Shown piece by piece: positions 2,748 through 40,376 of a stretch of 64,000 bases of DNA. Origin of the DNA: Escherichia coli (GTDB lineage: Bacteria; Pseudomonadota; Gammaproteobacteria; Enterobacterales; Enterobacteriaceae); the NCBI RefSeq assembly GCF_048403405.1, contig NZ_CP183129.1; one strand, 5' to 3'. Under the pieces are notes generated by a model. It was not told where the DNA came from and ran no database searches. It worked only from the letters and a program-made list of their open reading frames with translations. The position numbers and the translations under genes were made by a program. Each line of letters starts with the position of its first letter. Positions within the stretch are counted from its first letter, which is position 1.

Positions 2748-2751
2748 TGAA

Positions 2752-2967
2752 TTACTCTCCCCGTGCAGCCTTACGACGGTCCTCTCTGATTTTGAAATAC
2801 AGGTTAGTCAGATATGTCAGCAGCCCAAACAGCAGACTCCCCAGCACGCCTATTGCCGCCCACTGAGACGGGGAAACCCTGTCCAGCAACTGCAGGAACC
2901 AGTAGCCCGTTCCCACCGCTGACGTGGTGTATGACACACCTGTTGTGATTTTTTCCATCTGGTACAT
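2752..2967 (-). CDS. class II pinholin (phage 21 S21-like), dual-start motif
   Basis: [10 protein letters not shown]... two closely spaced Met starts; two TM segments; C-terminus ...[22 protein letters not shown] matches S21 as recalled. Confidence 0.8.
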
Positions 2968-3117
2968 ACCCCGTCTCCCGTTATCCGGAAGCTGACAACA
3001 ATAAAAAAAGCCACCAGTTAAGTACTGATGGCTCTGATAACTCATGCAGGCATCTCAGACGACCCACTGACACTACCGGTGAGTTTAACGATACCTTCCA
3101 TTTGGCTGGCTCACTTT

Positions 3118-18426: not shown

Positions 18427-18491
18427 CTCTTCTGATACCGAATCTTTTTACTCACAAATTGCCGGAAGTGATCCGGTATGAATATTGCGAG

Positions 18492-18917
18492 TCAATGCAC
18501 AGCCACAATATTTCCTGCAGGGCCACCACGATTCATCTGGTTGAAACCAGCGATCGCCACTGCGACAAAATCATCAGCGTCTCTCACCAGTCGTTCCCGC
18601 GTCTCCACCAGCTCCCGAAAATAAGCTGAACTGTGGCTGCGCATTCGGGCCACCAGCAGAGGCGGCATTGCTTTTTCGATCGCTGGTAACAACGCCTGAA
18701 TTTTTTTAACCGCATCAGGAGTGTCTTTCTCCACCCAGCGGAAAATTTTCTGGGTATTGCGAGCCAGGGCTTCCGGATGGCTGTCGTCATATAATTCCGG
18801 GAACGTCATACCAAGCTCAAAATAAGCCCGGGTTATTTCAGCTGCCGGAACTTTTTCACCGTCCGGATGCGCCCAGGCATTCATCGCCATGCGGATGTGC
18901 TCATGCCTGATTTTCAT
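18492..18917 (-). CDS. YdaT-like protein (CII-position regulator)
   Basis: 141 aa; N-terminus MKIRHEHI and C-terminus ...VAVH resemble Rac YdaT as recalled; follows the YdaS-like gene. Confidence 0.55.
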   Translation of the reverse strand: MKIRHEHIRMAMNAWAHPDGEKVPAAEITRAYFELGMTFPELYDDSHPEALARNTQKIFRWVEKDTPDAVKKIQALLPAIEKAMPPLLVARMRSHSSAYFRELVETRERLVRDADDFVAVAIAGFNQMNRGGPAGNIVAVH

Positions 18918-19182
18918 GAATCAACTCCGATGCATTTGGTGTGTTAGCCTTGAATCCAACAGGTAAGCCGTCGGTTGGATTCGGGTAAATATCAGGCCGG
19001 AGTTCATGAGGTGTAACCTCGAAATTCGTTACTTCAGCAACACGTAATGCTTTTTCAGGGCTGAATCTTTCATAGCCCCCCAGCACTCGACTTACATGCA
19101 CCTGAGATAAACCCGTTAGCTTCCCAAACTGTAGCTGGGTGATATGTTTCTCTTTTAAATAGTCTCTTAAGTTCATAGCCAA
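18901..19182 (-). CDS. YdaS-like Cro-type HTH protein
   Basis: 93 aa; HTH (QLQFGKLTGLSQVHVSRVLGG) and HELRPDIYP segment; divergent from the repressor gene. Confidence 0.6.
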   Translation of the reverse strand: MAMNLRDYLKEKHITQLQFGKLTGLSQVHVSRVLGGYERFSPEKALRVAEVTNFEVTPHELRPDIYPNPTDGLPVGFKANTPNASELIHENQA

Positions 19183-19208
19183 CCTTCTACGTTATGCCTC
19201 GAGCAAAT

Positions 19209-19223
19209 ATTAGCCCCGCTAAT
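19209..19223. promoter_or_regulatory. perfect 15-bp palindrome ATTAGCcccGCTAAT in the divergent immunity promoter region (candidate operator)
   Basis: Lies between divergent YdaS-like and DicA-like genes. Confidence 0.4.
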
Positions 19224-19283
19224 TTTAAAGATCAATAGCCAGACTATCTTTGATAATATTGGTAAAACAAATAAACTCTATGT

Positions 19284-19745
19284 ATGAAAAAAACACGCGA
19301 AGTGATTGCAACTCCAGAAGCGAGCAAGAATTTAAAAGCCGCATGGAATGCAAGAAAAAAAGAGCTGAAGCTGACTCAAGAGCTGGCGGCTGAGTTGTTG
19401 GGATTCGAATCTCAAGGCACCGTTAGCCAGTATCTGAACGGCAAGATACCGGTAAATACCGACGCTGCGCTAAAATTTGCGGCTCTGTTAAAGGTAAAAC
19501 CAGAGGACATTCGAGAAGACCTTAAAGACTTAATGAATTATGTAAGATCATCAGATACTTATGATGATAACTTTTCAGGCAAAGGATGGAGGCTGGTCAA
19601 TGAAGAACAGGCAGAGTTACTTAACCTCTTCGAGATTCTACCTGCGTCAGAAAAAGCCAAACTCCTTAACCAGCTACGTGGACTAAACAAGCTCTACGAG
19701 GAAGCCTTCGAGAACATGCTGGCACTAAAGAAACGTAACCAGTAG
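19284..19745 (+). CDS. DicA-like prophage repressor (XRE HTH)
   Basis: 153 aa; HTH (LTQELAAELLGFESQGTVSQYLNG); C-terminal LLNLFEILPASEKAKLLNQL resembles DicA as recalled. Confidence 0.7.
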   Translation: MKKTREVIATPEASKNLKAAWNARKKELKLTQELAAELLGFESQGTVSQYLNGKIPVNTDAALKFAALLKVKPEDIREDLKDLMNYVRSSDTYDDNFSGKGWRLVNEEQAELLNLFEILPASEKAKLLNQLRGLNKLYEEAFENMLALKKRNQ

Positions 19746-19777
19746 CCACCGCTCACTACCCCATCCACAACAAAAAA

Positions 19778-19801
19778 ACCGACGTCTTAGTCGGTTTTTT
19801 T
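19778..19801 (+). terminator. intrinsic terminator after the repressor gene
   Basis: accgac-gtctta-gtcggt then ttttttt. Confidence 0.7.
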
Positions 19802-19998
19802 GTGCCATAACTTCTGCAAATCAGCTGTATAACTAATATTTTTCCCTTGAAAAAACATTTACATAGTTACCAAATCAAAAATATCATACGCCATACTGTT
19901 GACTTAAAATATCCGCGTTACTAATATTTCTATCAAGAACAGCACGGCGCTGTAGGTTTTAGTTCCGCCACCCGGCGTTAAGGGGAAATGAGGTCAGC

Positions 19999-22234: not shown

Positions 22235-24706
22235 ATGAGTAAAGTCTTTATTTGCGCCGCCATTCCGGACGAACAGGCAATAAAGGAAGAAGGTGCAGTC
22301 GCTGTAGCCACTGCCATTGAAGCCGGTGATGAACGTCGCGCCCGCGCAAAATTTCACTGGCAATTCCTGGAACATTATCCGGCTGCTCAGGACTGCGCTT
22401 ATAAATTTCTTGTCTGCGAGGATAAACCCGGTATACCCCGCCCTGCCCTAGATTCCTGGGATGCTGAATATATGCAGGAAAACCGCTGGGATGAGGCGTC
22501 TGCTTCCTTTGTCCCGGTTGAGACTGAATCAGATCCGATGAACGTCACTTTTGACAAGCTGGCCCCTGAAGTACAGAACGCTGTCATGGTTAAGTTCGAC
22601 ACATGTGAAAACATCACCGTTGATATGGTGATTAGCGCGCAGGAACTGTTGCAGGAAGACATGGCAACATTCGACGGACATATCGTTGAAGCGTTGATGA
22701 AAATGCCAGAAGTTAACGCCATGTATCCGGAGCTTAAGCTGCATGCCATCGGGTGGGTTAAGCATAAATGTAAGCCTGGTGCCAAATGGCCCGAAATTCA
22801 GGCAGAGATGCGCATCTGGAAAAAACGTCGCGAAGGTGAACGCAAGGAAGCCGGAAAATACACGTCTGTTGTTGATCTCGCCCGCGCCAGAGCCAATCAA
22901 CAGCACACTGAAAATTCAACAGGAAAAATCAACCCGGTCATTGCTGCCATTCATCGCGAATACAAGCAGACATGGAAAACACTGGATGACGAACTGGCCT
23001 ACGCTCTCTGGCCTGGTGATGTGGATGCCGGAAACATTGACGGCAGCATCCATCGCTGGGCAAAAAATGAAGTTATCGACAACGACCGCGAAGACTGGAA
23101 GCGTATCTCGGCATCAATGCGCAAACAGCCTGATGCCCTTCGCTACGACCGCCAGACTATTTTTGGCCTTGTCCGTGAACGTCCGATCGACATTCACAAA
23201 GACCCTGTGGCACTGAACAAATACATTACTGAATACCTGACTACAAAGGGCGTGTTTGAAGATGAAGGAACAAATCAGAGCGCAACTGATACTCTCTCGT
23301 CGCCAGTACCAGAAACTGATGCAGTGGAAACGGCAATTCCGGACAACGAAAAAACCGAATGCAAAGTGGAAGTCGAACCATCTGTAGAACGTGAGGGGCC
23401 GTTCTACTTCCTCTTCACCGACAAGGATGGCGAAAAATACGGTCGCGCAAACAAACTTTCTGGTCTGGATAAGGCGCTGTCTGCTGGGGCTACTGAAATC
23501 ACGAAAGAAGAATATTTCGCCCGCAAAAACGGTACATACTCAGGTTCACAACAAAATACTGGTGCATCTGACACGACCGCACAACCAGGGTCAGTAAAAG
23601 TTACCGCTGACGAAGTAAACAAAATTATGCAGGCAGCCAATATCAGCCAGCCTGACGCCGATGAACTGCTTGCAGTATCACGTGGTGAATTTGTTGAAGG
23701 GATTAGCGACCCGAATGATCCGAAATGGGTTAAGGGGAACCAGACCCGCGATTCTGTGAACCAGAACCAGCAAGAAACGGAACAGAACGACCAGAAAGCG
23801 GAACAAAACAGCCCAAATGCGTTACAAAACGAGCCAGAAACGAAACAGCCTGAATCAGTGGCGCAACAGGAAGTGGAAAAAGTCTGCACCGCCTGCGGTC
23901 AGACCGGCGGCGGCAACTGCCCTGATTGTGGCGCGGTAATGGGCGACGCAACATACCAGGAAACATTCGATGAAGAGTATCAGCCTGAAGTTCAGGAAGA
24001 TGATCCGGAGGAAATGGAAGGCGCTGAACATCCACACAAGGAGAACACTGGCGGCAATCAGCATCACGATAGCGATAATGAAACTGGCGAGACGGCAGAT
24101 CACTCAATTAAGGTGAACGGTCATCAAGAAATCACATCCACCAGCAGGACGTGTGACCATCTAATGATCGACCTTGAAACCATGGGAAAAAATCCTGATG
24201 CCCCGATCATCTCAATAGGTGCAATATTTTTCGATCCGCAAACCGGAGATATGGGACCGGAATTTAGTAAGACTATCGATCTGGAAACTGCTGGCGGAGT
24301 CATTGATCGGGACACCATTAAATGGTGGCTTAAGCAATCACGCGAAGCGCAATCTGCCATTATGACCGATGAAATCCCGTTAGATGATGCACTGTTACAA
24401 TTGCGGGAATTTATCGACGAAAACTCCGGTGAATTTTTTGTTCAGGTTTGGGGAAATGGAGCCAACTTCGACAACACGATTTTGCGCCGTTCATACGAAC
24501 GGCAGGGGATCCCCTGCCCGTGGCGTTACTACAACGATCGCGATGTACGCACAATCGTTGAGCTGGGGAAAGCCATAGACTTCGATGCCAGAACGGCTAT
24601 TCCATTCGAAGGTGAGCGCCATAATGCACTTGATGACGCCCGTTACCAGGCAAAATACGTTTCAGCTATCTGGCAAAACCTGATCCCAAATCAGGCTGAT
24701 TTTTAA
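22235..24706 (+). CDS. YdfE-like prophage exonuclease, full length (C-terminal DnaQ-like DEDDh 3'-5' exonuclease domain)
   Basis: 823 aa; C-terminal MIDLETMG and HNALDDARYQ motifs; central acidic/Gln-rich linker with C-x2-C-x8-C-x2-C zinc ribbon (CTACGQTGGGNCPDCG). Confidence 0.7.
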   Translation: MSKVFICAAIPDEQAIKEEGAVAVATAIEAGDERRARAKFHWQFLEHYPAAQDCAYKFLVCEDKPGIPRPALDSWDAEYMQENRWDEASASFVPVETESDPMNVTFDKLAPEVQNAVMVKFDTCENITVDMVISAQELLQEDMATFDGHIVEALMKMPEVNAMYPELKLHAIGWVKHKCKPGAKWPEIQAEMRIWKKRREGERKEAGKYTSVVDLARARANQQHTENSTGKINPVIAAIHREYKQTWKTLDDELAYALWPGDVDAGNIDGSIHRWAKNEVIDNDREDWKRISASMRKQPDALRYDRQTIFGLVRERPIDIHKDPVALNKYITEYLTTKGVFEDEGTNQSATDTLSSPVPETDAVETAIPDNEKTECKVEVEPSVEREGPFYFLFTDKDGEKYGRANKLSGLDKALSAGATEITKEEYFARKNGTYSGSQQNTGASDTTAQPGSVKVTADEVNKIMQAANISQPDADELLAVSRGEFVEGISDPNDPKWVKGNQTRDSVNQNQQETEQNDQKAEQNSPNALQNEPETKQPESVAQQEVEKVCTACGQTGGGNCPDCGAVMGDATYQETFDEEYQPEVQEDDPEEMEGAEHPHKENTGGNQHHDSDNETGETADHSIKVNGHQEITSTSRTCDHLMIDLETMGKNPDAPIISIGAIFFDPQTGDMGPEFSKTIDLETAGGVIDRDTIKWWLKQSREAQSAIMTDEIPLDDALLQLREFIDENSGEFFVQVWGNGANFDNTILRRSYERQGIPCPWRYYNDRDVRTIVELGKAIDFDARTAIPFEGERHNALDDARYQAKYVSAIWQNLIPNQADF

Positions 24707-24770: not shown

Positions 24771-25019
24771 ATGGCAAGACTTATTCTGCTCACTGAGTGG
24801 GCAAAAGAGGAATTCAGTGAACCGGTCCCTACTCCGAGTACGTTAAGTAAATACGCTAAAGCCGGAATGATATTTCCTCTCCCCAAAAAAGTTGGAAGAC
24901 GCTGGCGAGTGGATCCGCAAGCTCGCTTTGTCGGAATGGTAAACAAGCCGGAGGTGATCGCCACAGATCACCCTGCTTTGAAGAGGATACTGGAAGATGG
25001 CGCGCCCGCGAAAATATAA
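24771..25019 (+). CDS. excisionase (Xis/AlpA-like)
   Basis: 82 aa; MIFPLPKKVGRRWRVDPQARF resembles lambda Xis; 3' end overlaps int start. Confidence 0.7.
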   Translation: MARLILLTEWAKEEFSEPVPTPSTLSKYAKAGMIFPLPKKVGRRWRVDPQARFVGMVNKPEVIATDHPALKRILEDGAPAKI

Positions 25020-26127
25020 AACCGATGTTCCGGGATTATCTCCGTATTTTGACAAAAGAAATAACAAAGTTTACTGGCGTTACAGGCATCCCATAACAGG
25101 CAAAAATCACGGTCTCGGCAGTATTGACCAGAAACTGGCAGAAACTATTGCAGCAGAAGCGAACAGCCGTCTTGCCCGGCAGCAAATGGAACAAATGCTC
25201 AGTCTGCAGGAGAAAATTATTAGTGATACCGGCGGTTCATCAACCGTTACCATTTTTCTGAATAATTACAGAAAAATTCAACAGGAAAGATATGAAAACG
25301 GCGAGATCAAACTCAACACGCTGAAACAGAAAGCGGCCCCTCTCAGGGTATTTGATGAACGTTTTGGCACCAGACCGTTAGATGCCATAACCGTAAAAGA
25401 TGTGGTATCAGTACTGGAAGAGTACAAGGCCAGAGGACATAACAGAATGGGACAAATTTTCAGGAAAGTACTGATCGATGTTTTCCGGGAAGCTCAGCAA
25501 ACGGGCGATGTCCCGCCAGGCTTTAACCCTGCAGAATCGGCAAAAAAACCGCAGGTGCGGATATCAAGACAGCGACTGACTTTTGATGAGTGGATGATGA
25601 TTTATAACGCAGCGGAAAAGAATGGTTACTTTTTACAGCGCGGTATGCTGCTGGCACTGATGACAGGCCAGCGCCTTTCAGATATTTGCAAAATGCAATT
25701 TTCGGATATCCGGGATGGTTATCTTCATGTCGAACAGCAAAAAACAGGAACCCGGATTGCCATCCCTCTGGCTCTGCGTTGCGATAAATTAAATCTCACC
25801 CTGGATGATGTAGTGTCATCCTGCCGCGATTGCGTTCTTAGTCCGTGGCTATTGCACCACCATCACGCGAAAGGGACAGCTAAGCGCGGCGGGATGGTTA
25901 AGCCAGCAACATTAACCGTTGCATTTAAAAAAGCCCGGGATTCTGTGGATTACAACTGGCGTGCTAATGGCACCCCACCCTCTTTCCATGAGCAGAGATC
26001 TTTATCAGAGCGATTGTTCAGAGAGCAGGGGGTTGATACCAAAATTTTGCTAGGCCATTCGAATCAAAAAATGACCGATATTTACAACGATGTACGCGGT
26101 AAGGAGTGGAAAAAACTGGTCATTTGA
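24997..26127 (+). CDS. phage integrase (tyrosine recombinase)
   Basis: 376 aa; C-terminal catalytic region ...LLGHSNQKMTDIYNDVRG; ends 45 bp from the ompW stop. Confidence 0.9.
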   Translation: MARPRKYKTDVPGLSPYFDKRNNKVYWRYRHPITGKNHGLGSIDQKLAETIAAEANSRLARQQMEQMLSLQEKIISDTGGSSTVTIFLNNYRKIQQERYENGEIKLNTLKQKAAPLRVFDERFGTRPLDAITVKDVVSVLEEYKARGHNRMGQIFRKVLIDVFREAQQTGDVPPGFNPAESAKKPQVRISRQRLTFDEWMMIYNAAEKNGYFLQRGMLLALMTGQRLSDICKMQFSDIRDGYLHVEQQKTGTRIAIPLALRCDKLNLTLDDVVSSCRDCVLSPWLLHHHHAKGTAKRGGMVKPATLTVAFKKARDSVDYNWRANGTPPSFHEQRSLSERLFREQGVDTKILLGHSNQKMTDIYNDVRGKEWKKLVI

Positions 26128-26169: not shown

Positions 26170-26172
26170 AAA

Positions 26173-26826
26173 TTAAAAACGATATCCTGCCGAGAACATA
26201 AACACCCACGGGTCAAGGCGTACATTGTCGCTATAACTGCCTTTAGCCAGTTTACGACCATCAGATTTATACTTCGCGGTGGTATCGATATCCATGTACC
26301 AGACTGACATGTTAACCAACCAGTCACGGTTAATCAGATAATCAACCCCCACCTGCCCGGCAGCTCCCCAGGAATCTTTCAGACTGAGATCGGAAAGCCC
26401 CGCCTCTTTGCCATGATCGTTAAATCCATTATCAAAGAAGGTGGTGTAGTTAATACCTGCCCCAACGTAAGGACGGAATTTGCTGCTGGCATCACCAAAA
26501 TACCACTGCGCCATCAGTGTTGGCGGCAGATGATGAACGGTTGCAATATCGCCGGTCGCCCGGGTGCCGATTTTATGGCGGAACGGCGTCGCTGCCAGCA
26601 ATTCCACACCAATGTTATCGGTCGCCATATAAGTAAACGTCAGGCCCAGTTGCGTGTTATTGGTCACGCTGAATCCACCCAGACTTCCTAACGTACCACC
26701 AGCACCTTCTGTTGGACGTACGGTTGCAGACCCTGCACGCATAAAAAATTCGCCTGCTTCATGCGCATAGGCACTGCCAGAGAGAAGAGTTGTTACTGCC
26801 AAAGCCGCCACTGTTAACTTTTTCAT
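26173..26826 (-). CDS. ompW: outer membrane protein OmpW (variant C-terminal loop)
   Basis: Signal peptide MKKLTVAALAVTTLLSGSAYA and body match OmpW; residues ~183-200 differ from the K-12 sequence as recalled. Confidence 0.9.
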   Translation of the reverse strand: MKKLTVAALAVTTLLSGSAYAHEAGEFFMRAGSATVRPTEGAGGTLGSLGGFSVTNNTQLGLTFTYMATDNIGVELLAATPFRHKIGTRATGDIATVHHLPPTLMAQWYFGDASSKFRPYVGAGINYTTFFDNGFNDHGKEAGLSDLSLKDSWGAAGQVGVDYLINRDWLVNMSVWYMDIDTTAKYKSDGRKLAKGSYSDNVRLDPWVFMFSAGYRF

Positions 26827-27182
26827 ATCCGCTCCGTCGTTATGGTTATAAAAACGTGACGAATATACCTACATTGGAGTAACAAATGATCCTACATAGG
26901 TCACATTACATATGATAATTCACCATTTATTGATCTGGATTAATTTAGAAGTTGCATTGAGAATCCTGGTTAATGTGATTTAAATCAATTTTTAAATATT
27001 TTCGCTACGCAAATATTAACTCGACCGCCACTTGCCGCGATTTGCCCACGTCTGAAGGCCAGCAATTACCTCCGCTTTACAAAGATATGCTTTTCCATAC
27101 AAGACCTGATGCTGCCACCCGAGGCTTAACCAGGGTACAATTGCCCGCTAATTAACACCTGCATAAAACTCAAGGAGAGTGC

Positions 27183-27926
27183 ATGTCTATCACGGCGCAG
27201 TCCGTATACCGTGACACCGGAAATTTCTTCCGTAATCAATTTATGACCATTCTGTTGGTATCGTTGCTATGTGCGTTTATCACAGTGGTGTTAGGGCATG
27301 TTTTCTCACCCAGTGATGCACAGCTTGCGCAGCTCAATGACGGCGTGCCCGTTAGCGGCAGTAGTGGGTTGTTCGACCTGGTTCAGAATATGTCACCGGA
27401 ACAGCAACAAATTTTGCTGCAGGCTTCAGCGGCGTCCACTTTTTCAGGATTAATCGGTAACGCCATTCTCGCCGGAGGCGTAATATTAATTATCCAGCTG
27501 GTGTCTGCGGGTCAGAGAGTCAGTGCGCTGCGAGCTATTGGTGCCAGTGCGCCGATATTGCCAAAGTTATTTATTCTGATTTTTCTGACTACCCTTTTAG
27601 TACAGATTGGCATCATGCTGGTGGTCGTTCCGGGAATTATCATGGCCATTTTACTGGCCCTGGCACCGGTGATGTTGGTACAGGACAAAATGGGCGTTTT
27701 TGCCTCGATGCGTAGCAGTATGCGGCTGACTTGGGCGAATATGCGTCTGGTGGCACCCGCAGTACTGAGCTGGTTGCTGGCAAAAACACTGTTGCTGCTT
27801 TTTGCCTCTTCTTTTGCCGCATTAACCCCGGAAATTGGTGCCGTACTGGCGAACACCTTGAGCAACCTGATTTCAGCCGTACTGCTCATCTATCTGTTCC
27901 GCCTGTATATGTTGATTCGCCAATAA
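27183..27926 (+). CDS. yciC: inner membrane protein YciC (UPF0259)
   Basis: 247-aa multi-TM protein; K-12 synteny. Confidence 0.9.
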
Positions 27927-27955
27927 CCTTAAGCATTTGATTACGGAATCGTAAA

Positions 27956-28495
27956 ATGAAGCAGTTTCTTGATTTTTTACCGCTGGTTGTCTTTTTCGCG
28001 TTTTACAAGATTTATGACATCTATGCGGCTACTGCGGCGCTGATCGTCGCCACGGCGATTGTGCTTATATATAGCTGGGTTCGCTTTCGTAAGGTTGAGA
28101 AGATGGCCCTGATCACTTTTGTTCTGGTGGTCGTCTTCGGTGGCTTGACCCTGTTCTTCCACAATGATGAGTTTATTAAATGGAAGGTTACTGTCATTTA
28201 TGCCCTGTTTGCGGGTGCCCTGTTAGTCAGCCAATGGGTGATGAAAAAGCCGCTAATTCAGCGGATGCTGGGTAAAGAACTCACGCTGCCGCAACCGGTA
28301 TGGTCGAAGCTGAATCTGGCCTGGGCTGTTTTCTTTATCCTTTGCGGTCTTGCAAACATCTACATCGCATTCTGGCTGCCGCAAAATATTTGGGTCAACT
28401 TTAAAGTCTTTGGCCTGACCGCCCTTACCTTAATCTTCACATTGTTAAGCGGTATCTATATCTACCGCCACATGCCGCAGGAAGATAAATCCTAA
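27956..28495 (+). CDS. yciB: intracellular septation protein YciB
   Basis: 179-aa membrane protein; K-12 synteny. Confidence 0.9.
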
Positions 28496-28599
28496 CCAGA
28501 CTGCCAGTCCTTCGGGGCTGGCGCTGTATCTCCTCTGTTCTCCTCAGGAAAATCATAGTAGCATCGCGCCTGTGATTTTCCTTTTAAGTCGGTTTTACC

Positions 28600-28998
28600 A
28601 TGTCTACAACACATAACGTCCCTCAGGGCGATCTTGTTTTACGTACTTTAGCCATGCCCGCCGATACCAATGCCAATGGTGACATCTTTGGTGGTTGGTT
28701 AATGTCACAAATGGATATTGGCGGCGCTATTCTGGCGAAAGAAATTGCCCACGGTCGCGTAGTGACTGTGCGGGTTGAAGGAATGACTTTCTTACGGCCG
28801 GTTGCGGTCGGCGATGTGGTGTGCTGCTATGCACGCTGTGTCCAGAAAGGGACGACATCGGTCAGCATTAATATTGAAGTGTGGGTGAAAAAAGTAGCGT
28901 CTGAACCCATCGGGCAACGCTATAAAGCGACAGAAGCATTATTTAAGTATGTCGCGGTTGATCCTGAAGGAAAACCTCGCGCCTTACCTGTTGAGTAA
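28600..28998 (+). CDS. yciA: acyl-CoA thioesterase YciA
   Basis: 132 aa hotdog-fold thioesterase; K-12 synteny. Confidence 0.9.
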   Translation: MSTTHNVPQGDLVLRTLAMPADTNANGDIFGGWLMSQMDIGGAILAKEIAHGRVVTVRVEGMTFLRPVAVGDVVCCYARCVQKGTTSVSINIEVWVKKVASEPIGQRYKATEALFKYVAVDPEGKPRALPVE

Positions 28999-29037
28999 TA
29001 ATCAAAAGCCTCCGGTCGGAGGCTTTTGACTTTCTGC

Positions 29038-29757
29038 TTACTGAATTTCGGTGGTGCCGTTAATTTTAAACAGGATATTCACCACAATCCCACTGCCTGG
29101 CTTACCCGGCTCATAACGCCATCTGCGCATCGCATTTTTCACCTCACGCTCAAACATATTCGCAGGCTTGGCTGAGAGGATTTGTACGTTATCCACGCGA
29201 CCATCCGGCGTGACGTCAAATTTAACTTTAACCTGCCCTTCAATGCGCAATGCCTGTGCTCGTGCCGGATACTGCGGCTGATTACGGCTTAATGCGCGTG
29301 GTCCTGAAGCCACACTGGTAACCGGCTTGCTGGTTGCAGCCGTCGCCGTACTTGATGTCGGGCGTGCCGGTGCCGTATTTTCAAACGGTGATGCCGGACG
29401 CGACTCTACGGGTTTGACATCGCGTTTTGGCTGTTCCTGTACCTTTTTCACCGGCTTCGGTTTTGGCTTAGGTTTCGGCTTCGGCTTTTCAATGACCACC
29501 GGTGCTTCTTTTGGCGGTTCGGGGATCGGCTCAGGTTCCGGTTCTGGCTCTACCACCGGCTCCGGTGGCGGCTGAACGGCTTGTGGCGGTTCGAGATCCG
29601 CAGGCGCAACCATCGTGACAGAAATTGGCTGCGCAGGCGCAGGTAGTTCAATAACCTGATGTACCGAGGTATAGAGCAGACCCGCCACAACAGCACCATG
29701 AATGCAGACCGAAAGTAACGTCGGCCAGGGGAAGCGGCGAGGTAAATCAAGGGTCAT
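29038..29757 (-). CDS. tonB: TonB energy transducer
   Basis: Start at MTLDLPRR; Pro-Glu and Pro-Lys repeats ([16 protein letters not shown]). Confidence 0.95.
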
Positions 29758-29980
29758 TGAAGTCATAATCATTTCAGTAGAAAAACCAGGCCTCGATTTT
29801 AAATGCAAATAGCAATCATATTCAATAAGGCAAGACGATCAGGATCAGTGAAAATGTCATTTTTGGCGTAATTGACCTTACTTTATGCATGGTCTTAACA
29901 AAGACATCATCTTTCCGTTGCAGATCTTCGCCCTTTCAAATAACGTACTTTACAACTTTCCCGAACAAGGAGTTGTGCCC

Positions 29981-30277
29981 GTGTTGTATGTTATTTACGC
30001 TCAAGACAAAGCTGATAGCCTCGAAAAACGCCTTTCCGTTCGTCCGGCACATTTAGCACGTTTACAGTTACTGCATGATGAAGGTCGTTTGTTGACAGCT
30101 GGTCCAATGCCAGCGGTAGACAGTAACGATCCAGGGGCTGCGGGATTTACTGGCTCAACCGTTATTGCTGAATTTGAATCGCTGGAAGCAGCTCAGGCCT
30201 GGGCCGATGCTGACCCGTACGTAGCGGCAGGAGTCTATGAACACGTTTCAGTGAAACCATTTAAGAAAGTGTTCTGA
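29981..30277 (+). CDS. yciI: YciI-like protein
   Basis: GTG start at 29981 with AAGGAG Shine-Dalgarno; 98 aa. Confidence 0.85.
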
Positions 30278-30577
30278 ATAGAGATTCAATATTTAAGGGC
30301 ACGGTTTTTGCAACCGTGTTCTTGTTTGGCCTTTCCTTATAGGTCGGTCAGTGCATTCCCCCCCACAAGCAGATAATAACTTTATCTGTATTTCTTTATA
30401 TGATGTGAGCATATTCAGGAAAAATGCCCTTTCCTGACGCAGAGTTGCTCACTCAAAACCTTTGATTACTGCGGATAAAGTCATCTACTATTGTTTAACA
30501 CATTCACGCGCTGCATGTATGTTCAGAAAATGTGCACGCTAAGATAATTAAACAAAATTGTGGTTACAGAGGTATCA

Positions 30578-31831
30578 GTGAGTCACTGGGCTACATTCAA
30601 ACAAACAGCAACTAATTTATGGGTGACCCTACGGCACGACATTCTCGCGCTGGCCGTCTTTTTAAATGGATTGCTTATTTTTAAAACAATCTATGGTATG
30701 TCGGTCAATTTGCTAGATATTTTCCATATCAAAGCATTTTCAGAGTTGGATCTCTCATTGCTGGCAAACGCCCCACTCTTTATGCTCGGCGTCTTTCTTG
30801 TCCTGAACTCCATTGGCTTACTGTTCCGGGCAAAGCTCGCATGGGCAATCAGTATCATTTTGTTGTTGATAGCGCTAATTTACACCCTGCATTTTTATCC
30901 CTGGCTGAAATTTAGTATTGGATTTTGCATTTTTACGCTGGTGTTTTTGCTGATACTGCGCAAAGACTTCTCCCACAGTAGCGCCGCAGCCGGGACAATT
31001 TTCGCATTTATTAGTTTCACGACGTTACTGTTTTACTCCACCTACGGTGCGCTTTATTTAAGCGAAGGTTTTAATCCGCGAATAGAAAGTTTGATGACCG
31101 CGTTCTATTTTTCGATAGAAACCATGTCAACCGTCGGCTATGGCGATATTGTCCCTGTTTCTGAATCAGCACGATTGTTCACTATTTCGGTCATTATTTC
31201 CGGCATTACCGTTTTTGCCACCTCCATGACTTCAATTTTTGGTCCGCTTATCCGCGGGGGATTCAACAAACTTGTAAAAGGAAACAATCATACAATGCAT
31301 CGTAAAGATCATTTTATTGTTTGCGGACATTCGATTCTCGCCATCAATACGATTCTGCAACTGAATCAACGCGGACAAAACGTAACGGTTATCAGCAATT
31401 TGCCTGAAGATGATATCAAGCAACTTGAGCAACGCTTAGGTGATAACGCTGATGTTATCCCCGGTGACAGTAATGACAGTTCAGTATTAAAGAAAGCAGG
31501 AATCGATCGATGCCGGGCCATTCTGGCGCTGAGTGATAACGATGCAGATAACGCGTTTGTTGTACTCTCGGCAAAAGATATGAGCAGTGATGTCAAAACA
31601 GTTCTCGCCGTCAGTGATAGCAAAAACCTGAATAAGATTAAGATGGTACATCCGGATATCATTCTCTCACCGCAACTGTTTGGCAGCGAAATTCTGGCGC
31701 GAGTTTTAAATGGTGAAGAGATTAATAATGATATGCTCGTTTCAATGTTGTTGAACTCCGGTCATGGTATTTTCAGCGATAACGATGAACAAAAAACGAA
31801 AGCTGACAATAAAGAATTGGCGCAAAAATAG
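30578..31831 (+). CDS. kch: voltage-gated potassium channel Kch
   Basis: Selectivity filter TVGYGD; C-terminal RCK/TrkA domain; start at MSHWATFK (GTG). Confidence 0.9.
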   Translation: MSHWATFKQTATNLWVTLRHDILALAVFLNGLLIFKTIYGMSVNLLDIFHIKAFSELDLSLLANAPLFMLGVFLVLNSIGLLFRAKLAWAISIILLLIALIYTLHFYPWLKFSIGFCIFTLVFLLILRKDFSHSSAAAGTIFAFISFTTLLFYSTYGALYLSEGFNPRIESLMTAFYFSIETMSTVGYGDIVPVSESARLFTISVIISGITVFATSMTSIFGPLIRGGFNKLVKGNNHTMHRKDHFIVCGHSILAINTILQLNQRGQNVTVISNLPEDDIKQLEQRLGDNADVIPGDSNDSSVLKKAGIDRCRAILALSDNDADNAFVVLSAKDMSSDVKTVLAVSDSKNLNKIKMVHPDIILSPQLFGSEILARVLNGEEINNDMLVSMLLNSGHGIFSDNDEQKTKADNKELAQK

Positions 31832-31885
31832 ACTTTAAAGACGGAAGAGTAAACTTATTGGGCACCGCAATGGTGCCCAGTACAT

Positions 31886-32059
31886 TTAGATATTGTAGAT
31901 CGCAAACAATAACGAGTTACGCTGTTTGTTTAGAATGCACTTCCTGATGCTGTGGATACGCATATTTCGGCGCGACTGCCCCTCAAGCCAACGCGATTTA
32001 CGTCGGCTAGCCTGACGCTGCATGCGCCAGCGCCCCACTTCCGTTCTACTCCGCTTCAT
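31886..32059 (-). CDS. yciY: small protein YciY
   Basis: 57-aa Arg-rich ORF between kch and clsA. Confidence 0.5.
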   Translation of the reverse strand: MKRSRTEVGRWRMQRQASRRKSRWLEGQSRRNMRIHSIRKCILNKQRNSLLFAIYNI

Positions 32060-32201
32060 GTTAACTACTCTATGCAATAACAGAATGGTCATTATACCCC
32101 CGCCCCCGACGCTGACCAGTGCTTTTCCCGCGTTTTTATTTGCCAGATGAATCCATATGCGTAAACTCATAACAATGCGCTTTCAAAAGGATTTCTAATC
32201 T

Positions 32202-34026
<1,825 letters not shown>

Positions 34027-34077
34027 ATAATCGCTTTCGGCGTAATAAATATCCTCCGGCATAGCCGGAGGTTTTTC

Positions 34078-34762
34078 AAATGCGCCTATAAGGCTCTCTT
34101 ACCAGCCGCGCCCTAACAGGCGCACACGATCTGACATTTGCATCCAACTTCGTTACTTACGGCCCGTAAACGGGCTGCCCGGATAGGGAATCGATAACTG
34201 CTCTCCCATTTTATCCTCTTCAAGCTGGTGCTTTATGTAATCCTGTATCTTCGCCGTGTTCTTACCCACCGTATCGACGTAGTACCCTCTGCACCAGAAC
34301 TCCCTGTTCCTGTATTTGAATTTCAAATCACCAAACTGCTCGTAAAGCATCAGACTGCTTTTCCCTTTCAGATATCCCATAAAGCCGGATACGCTCATTT
34401 TGGGCGGGATCTCCACAAGCATATGGATATGATCTGCACAGCATTCAGCTTCCAGAATCCGTACACTTTTCCACTCACACAGCTTTCTCAAAATACTGCC
34501 TATTGCTCTACGCTTCTCTCTGTAGAACACCTGTCTTCGGTATTTTGGCGCAAAAACTATGTGATATTTACAGTTCCATCGGGTGTGCGCTAAGCTCTTT
34601 TCGTTCCCCATTGGGACCCCCTTTTGATTTCTTGTTTGACACTTGCAGTTGCCAGACCGCAAGGTGTTTTAACAAATCAAAAGGGGTTTTAATAACTGGC
34701 TTAAAGCTGAAAGCTTTCCGGAACCCCCAGCCTAGCTGGGGGTTTTCTGTGCACAAAAAAGG
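34078..34762 (-). mobile_element. IS200-like insertion sequence (IS200/IS605 family), boundaries approximate
   Basis: Single Y1 transposase ORF; hairpin ccccagc-cta-gctgggg near the tnpA-upstream end; occupies a short intergenic in K-12. Confidence 0.65.
34153..34611 (-). CDS. tnpA: IS200-type TnpA (HUH/Y1 transposase)
   Basis: 152 aa from MGNEKSLAHTRW; HxH motif (ADHIHMLVEIPP) and conserved Tyr region. Confidence 0.85.
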   Translation of the reverse strand: MGNEKSLAHTRWNCKYHIVFAPKYRRQVFYREKRRAIGSILRKLCEWKSVRILEAECCADHIHMLVEIPPKMSVSGFMGYLKGKSSLMLYEQFGDLKFKYRNREFWCRGYYVDTVGKNTAKIQDYIKHQLEEDKMGEQLSIPYPGSPFTGRK

Positions 34763-34789
34763 GCTGACAACTGTCAGCCCTTATTTTGT

Positions 34790-35794
34790 TTAAAGCGGAT
34801 CGACTTTCAGGCAAGAAACGGCGTGTCTGAAACTCCCCTCCAGCACAGGACGTGTTTTGGCACACTCCGGACCGGCAATCGGACAACGGGTACGGAAAAC
34901 ACAACCGGAAGGCGGGTTGATCGGCGACGGTAATTCCCCTTCCAGTAACTGGATGGTTTTGTTCTTCTCCAGATCCGGATCAGGTATGGGAACTGCCGAC
35001 ATCAATGCCCGGGTGTAAGGATGTAGTGGATTGTGGTAGACCTCATCATAGGTCCCCAGTTCTACCGCATGGCCGAGATACATCACCAGCACACGATCGG
35101 AAATGTGTTTTACCACGGCCAGGTCGTGAGCGATAAAAATTAATGACAATCCCATCTCGCGTTGCAGCTGCTGGAGCAAGTTGACCACCTGCGCCTGAAT
35201 TGACACGTCCAGCGCCGACACCGGCTCATCACAGATAATCAGCTTCGGTTCAAGAATAAGAGCACGAGCAATCCCGATACGCTGGCACTGCCCACCAGAG
35301 AACTCATGCGGATAGCGGTTAATCAGGTTAGGCAATAACCCGACTTTCAGCATCATCGCCTTCACGCGCTCGCGAACTTCCTGGCGTGACATTTTCGGAT
35401 GATAAGTACGCAGTGGTTCAGCGATGATCTCGCCGATGGTCATACGCGGGTTAAGCGATGCCAACGGATCCTGGAAAATCATCTGAATATCACTGCGAAC
35501 GGCACGCCATTCATCGGGCTTCATGCCCAGCAACTCTTTACCTAACCAGGCAACATGACCGTCGGTCGCCTTGACCAAACCGATGATGGCGCGAGCAAAG
35601 GTGGACTTACCGCATCCCGATTCCCCTACCACACCTAATGTTTCCCCTTCATACAGACGAAGAGTGACACCATCGACGGCTTTGAGCGTTTTCGGCGGTT
35701 GCCAGAACCACTGTTTGCCATCTTTGATTTCAAAGTGCACTTTCAGATCGGCGATTTCAAGGAGGACTTTTCTTCCTTCAGTTACAGCATTCAT
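34790..35794 (-). CDS. oppF: oligopeptide ABC transporter ATPase OppF
   Basis: Walker A GESGCGKST, ABC signature LSGGQ. Confidence 0.95.
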   Translation of the reverse strand: MNAVTEGRKVLLEIADLKVHFEIKDGKQWFWQPPKTLKAVDGVTLRLYEGETLGVVGESGCGKSTFARAIIGLVKATDGHVAWLGKELLGMKPDEWRAVRSDIQMIFQDPLASLNPRMTIGEIIAEPLRTYHPKMSRQEVRERVKAMMLKVGLLPNLINRYPHEFSGGQCQRIGIARALILEPKLIICDEPVSALDVSIQAQVVNLLQQLQREMGLSLIFIAHDLAVVKHISDRVLVMYLGHAVELGTYDEVYHNPLHPYTRALMSAVPIPDPDLEKNKTIQLLEGELPSPINPPSGCVFRTRCPIAGPECAKTRPVLEGSFRHAVSCLKVDPL

Positions 35795-36815: not shown

Positions 36816-37724
36816 TTAACGATCTTTCGGGTCGAGGGCATCACGCAAGCCATCGCCGATAAAGTTGAAACAAAACAGCGTCACCACGAGGAATCCCGCT
36901 GGGAACAACAGTAACCATGGAGAGACTTCCATCGAGTTCGCGCCATCACTCAGCAATGCACCCCAGCTGCTTAACGGCTCTTGCGTACCCAACCCCAGGA
37001 AGCTAAGGAAAGATTCAAAGAGGATCATGCTGGGCACCAGAAGTGATGCGTAGACCACCACCACACCGAGTACATTCGGCACAATGTGGCGAATAACAAT
37101 GCCCGACGTCGATACACCGCCAACTTGTGCCGCCTCAATAAACTCCTTGCGCTTCAGACTCAGGGTTTGCCCACGCACAATACGAGCCATATCCAGCCAG
37201 GAAACCATGCCTATCGCCACGAAAATCAGCAGGATGTTTTGACCGAAAAAGGTCACCAGCAAAATGACGAAGAACATGAATGGGAAGGAGTTGAGGATTT
37301 CCAGCAGACGCATCATTACCGAATCCACTTTACCGCCCAGATAACCGGAAAGCGAACCATAAAGTGTCCCGACGACCACAGCCACCAGTGCCGCAGCAAC
37401 ACCGACCATGAGTGAGATACGCCCGCCAATCGCAACGCGTACAAGCAGGTCGCGACCGGATGAGTCAGTACCAAAGTAGTGACCGGACTCCATATCCGGG
37501 GCGCTGGACATCATCGCCCAGTCAGTATCGTCATAGGCAAACTGCGAAAGCATCGGTGCCAGGATTACAAATAACGCGATCAGCACCAGCACTATCAGAC
37601 TGGCAACCGCCGCACGGTTATGCATAAAACGTCGACGTGCGTCCTGCCACAAGCTGCGCCCTTCGACCTCCAGCTTTTCACTGAAATTTTCCAGCGTCTC
37701 GCTGTTTTTCTTACTTAACATCAT
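36816..37724 (-). CDS. oppC: oligopeptide ABC transporter permease OppC
   Basis: 302-aa multi-TM permease; synteny. Confidence 0.95.
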   Translation of the reverse strand: MMLSKKNSETLENFSEKLEVEGRSLWQDARRRFMHNRAAVASLIVLVLIALFVILAPMLSQFAYDDTDWAMMSSAPDMESGHYFGTDSSGRDLLVRVAIGGRISLMVGVAAALVAVVVGTLYGSLSGYLGGKVDSVMMRLLEILNSFPFMFFVILLVTFFGQNILLIFVAIGMVSWLDMARIVRGQTLSLKRKEFIEAAQVGGVSTSGIVIRHIVPNVLGVVVVYASLLVPSMILFESFLSFLGLGTQEPLSSWGALLSDGANSMEVSPWLLLFPAGFLVVTLFCFNFIGDGLRDALDPKDR

Positions 37725-37738
37725 CGCGAGCTCCAGTA

Positions 37739-38659
37739 TCAGTAACGGATTTTCGGGTCGATAACCGCATATAGCACATCGACAATGGCATTAAACAAAA
37801 TGGTTAACGCACCAACCAGAATGGTCAGACTTAACACTAAGGAATAGTCACGGTTCAATGCGCCATTAACGAACAATTGCCCAATCCCCGGTAAACCATA
37901 AATGGTTTCGATGACCATAGAACCGGTAATAATGCCGACAAATGCAGGGCCCATATAGGAGAGCACGGGTAACAGAGCTGGTTTTAATGCGTGGCGTAAA
38001 ATGATCCGCCGCATAGGTAACCCTTTCGCCCGGGCAGTACGAATAAAGTTGGAGTGTAAAACCTCAATCATAGAGCCACGGGTAATACGCGCAATACTGG
38101 CGATATAGGCGAGTGACAACGCCACCATCGGCAATATCATGAATTTAAGCGCCCCACCATTCCAGCCACCGCCCGGCAGCCAATGCAAAATGATCGCAAA
38201 TATCATGACTAATAATGGCGCAACCACAAAACTGGGGATAACAACCCCGGTCATTGCCAGCCCCATCACGGTATAGTCCCATTTGGTGTTTTGTTTTAAT
38301 GCGGCAATAACGCCAGCACTAACACCCAGTATTACCGCAAGGAAAAATGCTGCGGCTCCCAGTTTGGCAGAAACGGGAAAACTGGATGCAACCAGGTCGT
38401 TGACCGAATAATCTTTATATTTAAACGATGGACCGAAATCGCCATGCGCCAGTTGTTTCAGGTAGCTGAAATACTGTGTCATGATCGGATCATTTAGATG
38501 ATATTTCGCTTCGATATTGGCCATCACTTCTGGCGGTAAAGTACGTTCGCCGGTAAAAGGGCTTCCCGGCGCGAGGCGCATCATGAAGAACGAAATAGTA
38601 ATAAGAATAAATAGCGTCGGAATCGCTTCCAGACAGCGACGTAGAATAAATTTTAACAT
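37739..38659 (-). CDS. oppB: oligopeptide ABC transporter permease OppB
   Basis: 306-aa multi-TM permease; synteny. Confidence 0.95.
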   Translation of the reverse strand: MLKFILRRCLEAIPTLFILITISFFMMRLAPGSPFTGERTLPPEVMANIEAKYHLNDPIMTQYFSYLKQLAHGDFGPSFKYKDYSVNDLVASSFPVSAKLGAAAFFLAVILGVSAGVIAALKQNTKWDYTVMGLAMTGVVIPSFVVAPLLVMIFAIILHWLPGGGWNGGALKFMILPMVALSLAYIASIARITRGSMIEVLHSNFIRTARAKGLPMRRIILRHALKPALLPVLSYMGPAFVGIITGSMVIETIYGLPGIGQLFVNGALNRDYSLVLSLTILVGALTILFNAIVDVLYAVIDPKIRY

Positions 38660-38744
38660 TGCCCTACCTTCTGGCCTGTGCCTTCTGTAATGCGATAAAA
38701 ATCAGACACCGTGGAGCAGGACACGCCTGCCCCACGTATTGCCA

Positions 38745-40376
38745 TTAGTGCTTCACAATGTACATATTCCGGGTGTAGGTATTATCCAGCGGATCTTTGC
38801 CGGTATAGCCACCAACCCACGGTTTCACCAGACGCGCATTCACGTAGTAATAAACAGGAACAATGGCCGAATCCTTATCCAGCTGTTGTTCTGCTTTAGT
38901 GTACAGAGCTGTGCGCTGCGCCTCGTCAGTCGCTTTCAGCGTTTCCGCCATAATGCTGTCAAAGGCCGGGCTCTTATAATGCGCGGTATTCATCGAGCTG
39001 TTCGACAGCATGGTGTTCAGGAAGGAAGTTGGTTCGTTGTAGTCTGCACACCAGCCTGCACGGGCCACATCAAAAGTGCCCTGGTGACGGGTGTCGAGGA
39101 ATGTTTTCCACTCCTGGTTAACCAGTTTGACGTTTACACCAATGTTTTTCTTCCACAATGAAGAGGCAGCAATCGCCAGCTTTTTATGCAGATCGGAGGT
39201 GTTATACAACAGGTTGATGGTTAACGGTTTGTCTGCGGTATAACCCGCTTCAGCCAGCAGTTTTTTCGCTTCTTCGTTACGTTTTTCCTGGCTCCAGCCA
39301 AACCATTCCGGCTGAGTCAATTTTGCGCCATCAGTATACGGTGGAGTGTAACTATAGGCGGGCATGTCGCCCTGCGCTTTCACTTTATTAACAATGATAT
39401 CGCGGTCCATACCCAGTTTCAGTGCGGTACGCACACGTACATCGTTAAATGGCGGTTTCTGGTTGTTAATTTCGTAATAATAAGTGCACAGGTATGGATC
39501 AACGTGAACTTCGTCCGGGATCTCTTTTTTCAGCTTCTGGAACAATTCGATCGGCATGTTGTTATAAGTCATGTCGATTTCACCACTACGGTAGCGATTG
39601 ACATCGGTAACTTCAGAAGCAATAGGCAAATAGGTTACCTGGTTAATAACGGTTTTCGCGTTGTTCCAGTAGGTCGGGCTGCGTTCAAGAACGATTCGTT
39701 CGTTTACGACCCAATCTTTTAAGGTATAGGCACCGTTGGTGACGATATTACCAGGCTGGGTCCATTTTTCGCCGAATTTCTCGATAGCGGCTTTTGGCAC
39801 CGGTGAAGTTGACGGGTGAACAAGTAATTTATAGAAGTACGGAACGGGTTCACTTAAGGTGACTTCTAATGTGTGATCATCAATAGCTTTCACGCCGAGA
39901 TCGGTAATCGGTTTTTTCCCTTCAAGAATTTCATCAATACCGGCGATATGCCCATATTGCAGATAACTGGCATACGGAGAAGCGGTGTTCGGATCAACAG
40001 AACGTTGCCAGCTATACACAAAGTCTTGGGCTGTGACTGGCGTGCCATCAGACCATTTCGCATCTTTACGCAAATGGAAGGTCCAGACTTTCGCGTCTTT
40101 ATTATCCCAGGATTCAGCGACGCCAGGTGCCGGATGGCCGTCAAGATCGCTGACCAGTAAGCCTTCAAACAGGTCTCGGCTGATATTAGACTCCGGAACA
40201 CCTTCAATTTTGTGCGGATCTAATGACTGAACTTCTGAACCATTGTTACGTACCAGCGTTTGTTTTTCCGCCAGTGTGACGCCTGCGGGTACATCAGCTG
40301 CCAGCGCGACATTCCCTGCCATAAGCGCAGCCAGAACGCCAGCTGCTACTAAACTTCTCTTGGTGATGTTGGTCAT
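38745..40376 (-). CDS. oppA: periplasmic oligopeptide-binding protein OppA
   Basis: 543 aa from MTNITKRS with signal peptide. Confidence 0.95.
   Translation of the reverse strand: MTNITKRSLVAAGVLAALMAGNVALAADVPAGVTLAEKQTLVRNNGSEVQSLDPHKIEGVPESNISRDLFEGLLVSDLDGHPAPGVAESWDNKDAKVWTFHLRKDAKWSDGTPVTAQDFVYSWQRSVDPNTASPYASYLQYGHIAGIDEILEGKKPITDLGVKAIDDHTLEVTLSEPVPYFYKLLVHPSTSPVPKAAIEKFGEKWTQPGNIVTNGAYTLKDWVVNERIVLERSPTYWNNAKTVINQVTYLPIASEVTDVNRYRSGEIDMTYNNMPIELFQKLKKEIPDEVHVDPYLCTYYYEINNQKPPFNDVRVRTALKLGMDRDIIVNKVKAQGDMPAYSYTPPYTDGAKLTQPEWFGWSQEKRNEEAKKLLAEAGYTADKPLTINLLYNTSDLHKKLAIAASSLWKKNIGVNVKLVNQEWKTFLDTRHQGTFDVARAGWCADYNEPTSFLNTMLSNSSMNTAHYKSPAFDSIMAETLKATDEAQRTALYTKAEQQLDKDSAIVPVYYYVNARLVKPWVGGYTGKDPLDNTYTRNMYIVKH

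Follow-up and report, generated by a model that had tools for sequence, protein, structure and literature searches.

In IS608 and ISDra2, the transposase TnpA binds subterminal hairpins on one strand, and a short guide lying 5' of each hairpin foot sets cleavage both 3' of the tetra- or pentanucleotide that flanks the left end (LE) and at the terminus of the right end (RE). A single-stranded circle is excised in this way and pasted 3' of the same target, preferentially in the lagging-strand template (PMC5027513, PMC6006769). Salmonella IS200, which is notoriously inactive in the laboratory, carries at nt 12-34 a bidirectional terminator hairpin that shields tnpA from outside transcription, at nt 69-138 a stem-loop that sequesters the Shine-Dalgarno (SD) sequence and represses translation, and on the opposite strand a 90-nt antisense RNA, art200 or STnc490 (PMC4513863). 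As to where such elements insert, our literature search for an explicit IS200 target rule returned only a 2025-26 preprint, in which terminator-like sequences were over-represented upstream of insertion sequences (ISs), most strongly for IS200/IS605.

Here we describe an IS200-group element in the spacer between yciU and oppF within a stretch of 64,000 nucleotides of Escherichia coli DNA (the window). The features of the locus are given below in the coordinates of the window; the top strand of the element, on which tnpA is sense, is the minus strand of the window.

33697-34026, plus strand: yciU (DUF440; Pfam PF04269, 2.9e-46, and RefSeq), with its stop codon 17 bp before the right end of the IS
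34044-34754, minus strand: the IS200C insertion, 711 bp, with LE at 34754 and RE at 34044, placed by the empty-site match and by the shared ends of other copies
34044-34076, minus strand: RE, reading on the top strand GAAAAA, hairpin CCTCCGGCTATGCCGGAGG (34053-34071) and tail ATATTTATT (34044-34052)
34153-34611, minus strand: tnpA, 152 aa
about 34603-34692, plus strand: putative antisense sRNA art200 (STnc490), placed approximately and by homology to Salmonella IS200 only
34618-34686, minus strand: stem-loop of the tnpA 5'UTR, with the RF01405 structure, in which the SD G-run is paired with the 3' arm (fold -22.8 kcal/mol, z=-5.3)
34722-34744, minus strand: perfect subterminal LE hairpin AACCCCCAGCTAGGCTGGGGGTT, element nt 11-33 and RF01405 model positions 1-23
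34755-34760, minus strand: target T-run TTTTTT on the tnpA/oppF-sense strand, host DNA adjoining LE and present in the empty site
34761-34780, both strands: native bidirectional yciU/oppF terminator hairpin GGGCTGACAACTGTCAGCCC, intact (fold -11.5 kcal/mol)
34790-35794, minus strand: oppF (Pfam ABC_tran and oligo_HPY, RefSeq), in the same orientation as tnpA

A preliminary description of this DNA had proposed an IS200-type element with a Y1 transposase, located in the yciU-oppF spacer and missing from K-12, and this proposal is borne out. The tnpA product matches Pfam Y1_Tnp over its whole length (PF01797, E=3.9e-38). The gene is the single long minus-strand ORF in the spacer, its start was taken as the PGAP-equivalent one, and the RefSeq counterpart of the CDS is WP_000526135.1. 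The solved relatives closest to the protein are PDB 2ec2 (4e-23) and IS608 TnpA (2a6m/2vjv, 4e-19). The HUH motif is H61-I62-H63, and Y125 and Q129 occupy positions aligned with the solved TnpA structures; tnpA is intact and has all catalytic residues. The palindromic hairpin that had been noticed at the tnpA-upstream end is likewise present, at 34722-34744, inside a match to Rfam RF01405 (STnc490, the IS200 5' region) that covers 34621-34744 on the minus strand and the full model (positions 1-124) with a score of 146 bits, where the gathering threshold is 56.

Megablast against 5,426 complete E. coli genomes found in strain 4621 a 1,051-bp stretch that is 100% identical, and PGAP labels the copy within it 'IS200/IS605-like element IS200C family transposase'; our use of the name IS200C rests on this annotation of an identical copy. 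PGAP calls nothing else between yciU and oppF there, so that the gene content is tnpA only, with no tnpB, and the remaining ORFs listed within the insert overlap tnpA or the structured 5'UTR. Terminal inverted repeats are absent and subterminal hairpins are found at both ends, as is characteristic of the IS200 group. Positions 34044-34754 almost certainly hold the known element IS200C (IS200/IS605 family, IS200 group), complete and apparently functional. As far as sequence can tell, it is a true IS200-group member and not a look-alike, with every testable defining feature in place. A prophage or REP remnant was rejected, since the ends are sharp, tnpA is intact and identical copies exist at other places, and a search of the rest of the window found no further copies of the element. 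Several weak Rfam matches were set aside as mere terminator-like hairpins with scores far below gathering (Ysr202, 24 bits vs 315; mir-2755; STnc320). The insertion itself is already known, an identical copy being annotated in RefSeq at the same locus; as one more copy of a catalogued IS, in a neutral site between convergent genes, it matters little.

The ends of the element were fixed with a synthetic empty site, made by joining 33844-34043 to 34755-34960 and compared by BLAST with the 5,426 complete E. coli genomes. Strains TUM14771 and GN02461 match this sequence at 100% identity over all 406 bp, and the uninterrupted site is present in 5,410 of the 5,426 genomes. Because deletion of 34044-34754 restores the exact empty site, the insert is 711 bp long and lacks a target duplication. 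With slashes at the junctions, the ends read CGT/AATAAAT...GTGCAC/AAAAAAGGG, and A residues on the flanks leave the placement ambiguous by 0-2 nt. Other copies of IS200C (at pbp4b/yfeX, at mgtT/dgcZ and elsewhere) match the window from 34044/45 to 34754, together with the adjoining A-run, and diverge outside; all 8 of the E. coli copies examined are 711 bp long and follow the same end rule. The sharp boundaries that had been expected are thus confirmed against the empty-site genomes, but the ends originally given, 34078-34762, are not: the insert measures 711 bp and not ~685 bp, 34078 sits 34 bp inside the element on the RE side, and 34762 takes in 8 bp of host DNA on the LE side.

Comparison with K-12 bears out the short intergenic region that had been expected there, the yciU-oppF spacer being 52 bp long (ATAATCGCTTTTAGCGTGAAAAAGGGCTGACAACTGTCAGCCCTTATTGTTTT), with a single hairpin between an A-run and a T-run. 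The spacer of strain SCU-316 has the same architecture and again one hairpin only. The spacer holds one bidirectional terminator, not two convergent ones, and the earlier picture of two convergent terminators left intact on either side of the element must be abandoned: the single bidirectional hairpin of the empty site now lies wholly on the oppF side, and the supposed yciU terminator at 34053-34076 is the right-end hairpin of the IS, which is found in every IS200C/IS1541 copy examined and not in empty sites. The element was correctly assigned to the yciU-oppF spacer but misplaced within it, since it sits not between two terminators but between the yciU stop codon and the shared terminator. 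The useful outcome lies in these corrections, namely the exact ends and the recognition that the supposed yciU terminator is IS-borne.

On the oppF-sense strand, the left end of the IS follows directly 3' of the terminator T-run. A consensus scan found both the native hairpin at 34761-34780 and the RE hairpin with its T5 to be terminator-like on both strands. The yciU transcript reaches the RE hairpin and T5 27 nt past the stop codon, before the native terminator, and the RE hairpin now plausibly ends this transcript, a substitution that is a consensus-scan prediction only. The effect of the insertion on the host is probably neutral, and the oppF terminator is untouched.

Along the top strand the order is host hairpin, TTTTTT, LE, LE hairpin, 5'UTR stem-loop, tnpA, GAAAAA, RE hairpin, tail and host DNA. 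The left end starts GTGCACAGAAAA; on the plus strand, the right end reads CCTCCGGCATAGCCGGAGG followed by TTTTT (34053-34076). Folded as DNA, the LE hairpin reaches -11.7 kcal/mol and the RE hairpin -10 kcal/mol, and in each case 0 of 200 shuffles folded as well. The two are related in sequence (CCCCCAGC-TAG-GCTGGGGG in LE vs CCTCCGGC-TAT-GCCGGAGG in RE), and GAAAA(A) precedes both. The LE hairpin is presumably bound by TnpA. The right end is identical in 62 of the 66 copies in which it was located, among the matches listed, and the DNA past the tail is variable; in one copy (L096) the RE stem is changed on both arms, CCCCCGGC...GCCGGGGG, with base pairing kept. If its role is the one described for Salmonella IS200, the 5'UTR stem-loop would repress translation of tnpA, and the LE terminator hairpin and a weak promoter, together with this SD-sequestering structure and art200, would hold expression at a very low level (PMC4513863). 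The placement of art200 is approximate, as the RF01405 model matches the tnpA-sense strand, yet art200 is antisense in Salmonella (PMC4513863); a plus-strand match to STnc490 at 20 bits was rejected as far below the gathering score.

Set beside its described relatives, the copy differs in nothing substantive from IS200C/IS200, and only its location is unusual. Salmonella enterica IS200 is alike in its tnpA-only content, its LE terminator hairpin and its SD-sequestering stem-loop; it is 707 bp long, compared with 711 bp here, and its LE hairpin is numbered nt 12-34 instead of nt 11-33 (PMC4513863). IS1541 of Yersinia pestis and Y. pseudotuberculosis has a 28-nt LE core, an RE hairpin and a ATATTTATT tail identical to those of IS200C and obeys the same flank rule, but it is 710 bp long, starts GTGCC instead of GTGCA, reaches ~70 copies per genome and occurs as tandem copies. 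With IS608 (Helicobacter pylori) and ISDra2, IS200C has in common a homologous TnpA (2a6m, E=4e-19), subterminal hairpins without inverted repeats, the absence of a target duplication, a left end 3' of a short conserved target and a lagging-strand-template orientation. IS608 carries tnpB, which IS200C lacks, and its target is TTAC, whereas that of IS200C is a T-rich pentamer after a strong hairpin, with an RE terminus that matches the target consensus. We know of no target hairpin needed by IS608. Bacterial group IIC introns also home to the DNA immediately 3' of terminator hairpins, where insertion is neutral and sites are plentiful, but they are RNA-based retroelements and IS200C uses an HUH single-strand DNA transposase, so the likeness is an analogy only.

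The position of the window copy, right after a hairpin and T6 on the oppF-sense side, conforms to a pattern seen throughout the group. A scan for the 28-nt LE core in one genome per species found at least 120 loci; among the matches listed, about 70 are Y. pestis IS1541 and the remainder come from Serratia, Citrobacter, Brenneria, Pectobacterium, Vibrio, Kluyvera and others. After deduplication, the matches listed provided 115 copies with usable flanks and, from about 20 species, 113 non-tandem sites for folding. In these copies, the base before LE is T at position -1 in 115/115, at -2 in 114/115, at -4 in 104/115 and at -5 in 114/115, and position -3 is T, A or G in 109/115; the pentamer TT[T/A/G/C]TT stands immediately 5' of LE in 103 of the 115 listed copies, giving the consensus TT(N)TT. 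The last bases of the RE tail, TTATT, fit this same consensus, and the variable DNA past the tail is T-enriched, as expected for landing inside T-tracts.

For the hairpin, a simpler detector was positive at 35% of control T5 sites, and folding energies over the 33 nt before the T-tract were compared instead, with 3,000 TT[TAG]TT sites from the same loci as controls. The median fold was -16.7 kcal/mol at the 113 IS sites among the matches listed and -3.6 kcal/mol at the controls, and folds of -10 kcal/mol or stronger preceded 96.5% of these IS sites vs 7.5% of controls (Mann-Whitney p=3e-67). The share of strong hairpins among the matches listed was 96.9% in Y. pestis (65 sites) and 95.8% in the other species (48 sites), and hairpin and T-rich tract were both found at 8/8 independent E. 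coli IS200C copies. The register is narrow as well: the distance from the stem to LE is 2-7 nt for 98 of 108 listed copies, and the orientation never varies. Several copies in Y. pestis stand in tandem, LE directly following the RE of another copy; this is to be expected, since RE too offers a hairpin and then TTATT.

From these patterns we tentatively propose, at somewhat less than even confidence, that transposases of the IS200 group select intrinsic terminators by their structure, recognising a GC-rich hairpin with TT(N)TT behind it in the single-stranded lagging-strand template as a mimic of their own right end (hairpin and ATATTTATT). If this is true, TnpA would recognise a target hairpin, unlike anything known for IS608-type elements, and the 96.5% terminator association, the recurrent insertions at one nucleotide and the tandem copies would all be accounted for. 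We know of no demonstration of a hairpin-dependent targeting mechanism. The terminator preference as such is only partly new: Odaert et al. reportedly saw terminator-like stem-loops at 8 of 14 IS1541 sites in 1998 (J Bacteriol 180:178) and called them hot spots. What is added here is how strict the association is (~96%), the consensus TT(N)TT, and the likeness of the target to RE. The pattern could help to annotate IS ends and to predict where insertions fall, and it may help to explain how an HUH transposase chooses its targets.

How the yciU/oppF terminator acquired its insertions bears on this proposal. The site is occupied in 7 of 5,426 complete E. coli genomes, namely strains 4621, MS 69-1, TUM1226 and OX030728, which are 100% identical to the window here, and three ST2747 records. 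The insertion is thus a rare lineage marker, and it is recent, since so few genomes have it. The IS of ST2747 occupies the same nucleotide as the window copy and faces the same way, but it shows 27 differences (3.8%), all inside the element between 34088 and 34702, of which 22 fall in tnpA and cause 4 amino-acid changes. We favour, with moderate confidence, a history in which different IS200 variants inserted independently at this terminator. A single ancestral insertion, altered later by gene conversion from another IS200 copy, is rather less likely, although much about the locus would suit it: the flanks are identical over 54 + 87 bp (141 bp aligned), the right flank shows 1 mismatch in the next 2.6 kb, and the many IS200 copies in these genomes are possible donors. 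ST2747 and the window also share a rare haplotype of the spacer, CGTAAAAAAGGG, with T6 on the target strand, which was found at >=99% identity in only 9 records, namely 4621, MS 69-1, TUM1226, OX030728, the three ST2747 records, TUM14771 and GN02461; K-12 and most strains have CGTGAAAAAGGG and thus T5. Conversion would, however, have had to replace nearly the exact full IS, with differences throughout 34088-34702 and both junctions unchanged. Beyond the first 2.6 kb, moreover, the right flank of ST2747 has a deletion and then 35 mismatches in 10.7 kb, while the empty-site genomes TUM14771 and GN02461 show 2 mismatches to the window in 15 kb; that empty-site genomes are closer to the window than ST2747 fits either two gains or one gain and a precise loss. 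It is most improbable that the copy is a dead relic, domesticated as an sRNA or terminator module. IS200 is regarded as largely dormant, its 5' region gives rise to regulatory sRNAs in Salmonella (PMC4513863, PMC5435999), and the RE hairpin now provides a terminator-like signal for yciU. Against a relic stand the intact tnpA with all catalytic residues, the completeness of both ends, the identical 711-bp copies at different loci in different strains and the recency that the rarity of the insertion indicates. A 100% identical copy occurs at another locus, pbp4b/yfeX, an identical 717-bp copy lies at another locus in an unrelated strain, and carriers of the insertion have 8-19 matching places per genome vs a median of 1-2; the identical copy elsewhere and the number of matching places suggest that IS200C has lately been active in E. 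coli.

The association with hairpins could also arise after insertion, if IS200 enters behind any T-rich pentamer and only the copies that land behind terminators survive selection. Convergent-gene spacers are neutral landing sites, 7.5% of control T-rich sites also follow strong hairpins, and the 2025-26 preprint interprets the enrichment as an aid to persistence, by way of low transposase expression. Survival of this kind would nevertheless leave the fixed register and single orientation of LE behind the stem (98/108 listed copies) to be explained, and intergenic T-runs without hairpins, such as those of promoters, are essentially unused (96.5% vs 7.5%). Y. pestis, a species in which many genes are disrupted by ISs of other families, shows the pattern just as strictly. 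At the yciU/oppF terminator, insertions of two different IS200 variants coincide to the nucleotide, and tandem copies take RE itself, a hairpin and TTATT, as their target. We consider selective survival unlikely as the full explanation, though it could account for part of the association, and we favour targeting because of the fixed register and orientation, the use of RE as a target and the recurrent insertion at one nucleotide; our confidence that the hairpin association reflects targeting and not the survival of harmless insertions lies, on these sequence patterns, between slightly under even and reasonably good.

By analogy with IS608 and ISDra2, TnpA dimers would bind to the two subterminal hairpins of the top strand, at LE and RE, and cut 3' of the T-rich pentamer that flanks LE and after ...TTATT at RE. 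The GAAAA(A) before each hairpin is a candidate guide sequence; cleavage sites and guides of IS200 are here read from sequence patterns. A single-stranded circle would then be released and pasted 3' of another T-rich pentamer in single-stranded DNA of the lagging-strand template, the preferred target being a strong hairpin with a T-tract, that is, an intrinsic terminator resembling the element's own right end. The orientation of the window copy is consistent with such a route. The GC skew of the plus strand of the window is -0.051, which makes the tnpA strand the G-rich strand. In K-12, oppF lies on the plus strand at 1.306 Mb, which, from the positions of oriC and dif, is within the clockwise replichore. 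With tnpA on the G-rich strand and oppF in the clockwise replichore, the top strand would therefore be the lagging-strand template, an orientation that fits the family rule and that, in a single copy, is consistent with it and is not proof.

A strong hairpin followed by a TT(N)TT motif abuts the left end (LE) in independent copies of IS200 and of its Yersinia relative IS1541 (n = 113 among the matches listed, in about 20 species). The LE flanks showing this arrangement are in L007-L126 (the matches of the LE-core scan), the fetched loci L003, L004 and L132-L136, and window 34755-34790. Among the 113 copies, 96.5% of LE sites folded at -10 kcal/mol or below, versus 7.5% of control T-rich sites. 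A 1998 paper on IS1541 reportedly gave 8 of 14 sites; the rule of a hairpin plus T-rich sequence is far stricter here.

At the window insertion, the IS carriers and the two closest genomes with an empty yciU-oppF site, TUM14771 and GN02461 (L128/L129), have in common a rare spacer polymorphism, reading CGTAAAAAAGGG rather than CGTGAAAAAGGG (window 34044, junction A), which makes the T-run at the target one residue longer (T6 instead of T5). At an identity of at least 99%, the CGTAAAAAAGGG haplotype occurs in only nine records, seven of which contain an IS.

Against the same two empty-site genomes, 15 kb of right flank of the window IS align without gaps and with 2 mismatches. In the 7.9 kb of left flank (window 26171-34043) there are 12-15 mismatches, together with 9 gap openings. 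Import of a tract by recombination, repeats prone to indels, or errors in the assembly could each account for the left-flank differences. Further left, beyond ompW (window 1-26170), collinearity with these genomes is lost, and the region beside ompW is probably an integrated prophage. The features concerned are as follows.

22235-24706, a protein of 823 aa that includes an Rv2179c-like exonuclease domain
24997-26127, a lambda-type integrase (Arm-DNA-bind_1 and Phage_integrase domains), adjoining ompW
26173-26826, ompW

E. coli ST2747 carries a divergent IS200 at exactly the nucleotide position and in the orientation of the window IS200C, between identical flanks. The two elements diverge by 3.8%, and all 27 substitutions, which entail 4 amino-acid changes, lie within the IS. 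The ST2747 copy would be explained either by gene conversion or by an IS200 having inserted independently, for a second time, at this terminator. As a separate observation, oppB and oppC are absent from this strain, in which oppD is directly followed by an enlarged 'oppA' CDS; BLAST shows a deletion, some 2.6 kb away from the element.

L005 1301-2011, also in L127 (NZ_CP007394.1), the ST2747 IS200 variant, corresponding to window 34044-34754
L127 about 17861-19828, loss of oppB and oppC, corresponding to window about 37400-39000

The Rfam model RF01405 (STnc490) matches window 34621-34744 with 146 bits on the tnpA-sense strand and only 20 bits on the opposite strand. Since STnc490/art200 is described in the literature as antisense to tnpA, yet the sense strand scores higher, the model appears to have been built in the sense (5'tnpA) orientation.

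On O157 and O103 virulence plasmids (H28/H29; pO157-type plasmids NZ_CP038404.1 and NZ_CP193496.1), an unannotated stretch of 142 bp has 92% identity to the right-end (RE) region of IS200 (window 34043-34184) and is probably an IS200 remnant. In E. coli SCU-387, the IS200C copy downstream of hisIE (L006 1212-1910) has a truncated LE hairpin, with an annotated IS4-family transposase gene adjoining the truncation, and its RE abuts REP-like palindromes 3' of hisIE. Finally, IS1541 copies stand in tandem in Yersinia pestis NCTC5923 (L012, L013 at 2661-3398, L015, L029 and L059), the LE of one copy lying directly 3' of the RE of another; the junction reads ...GGAGGATATTTATT|GTGCC, with an extra T at two of the tandem junctions.
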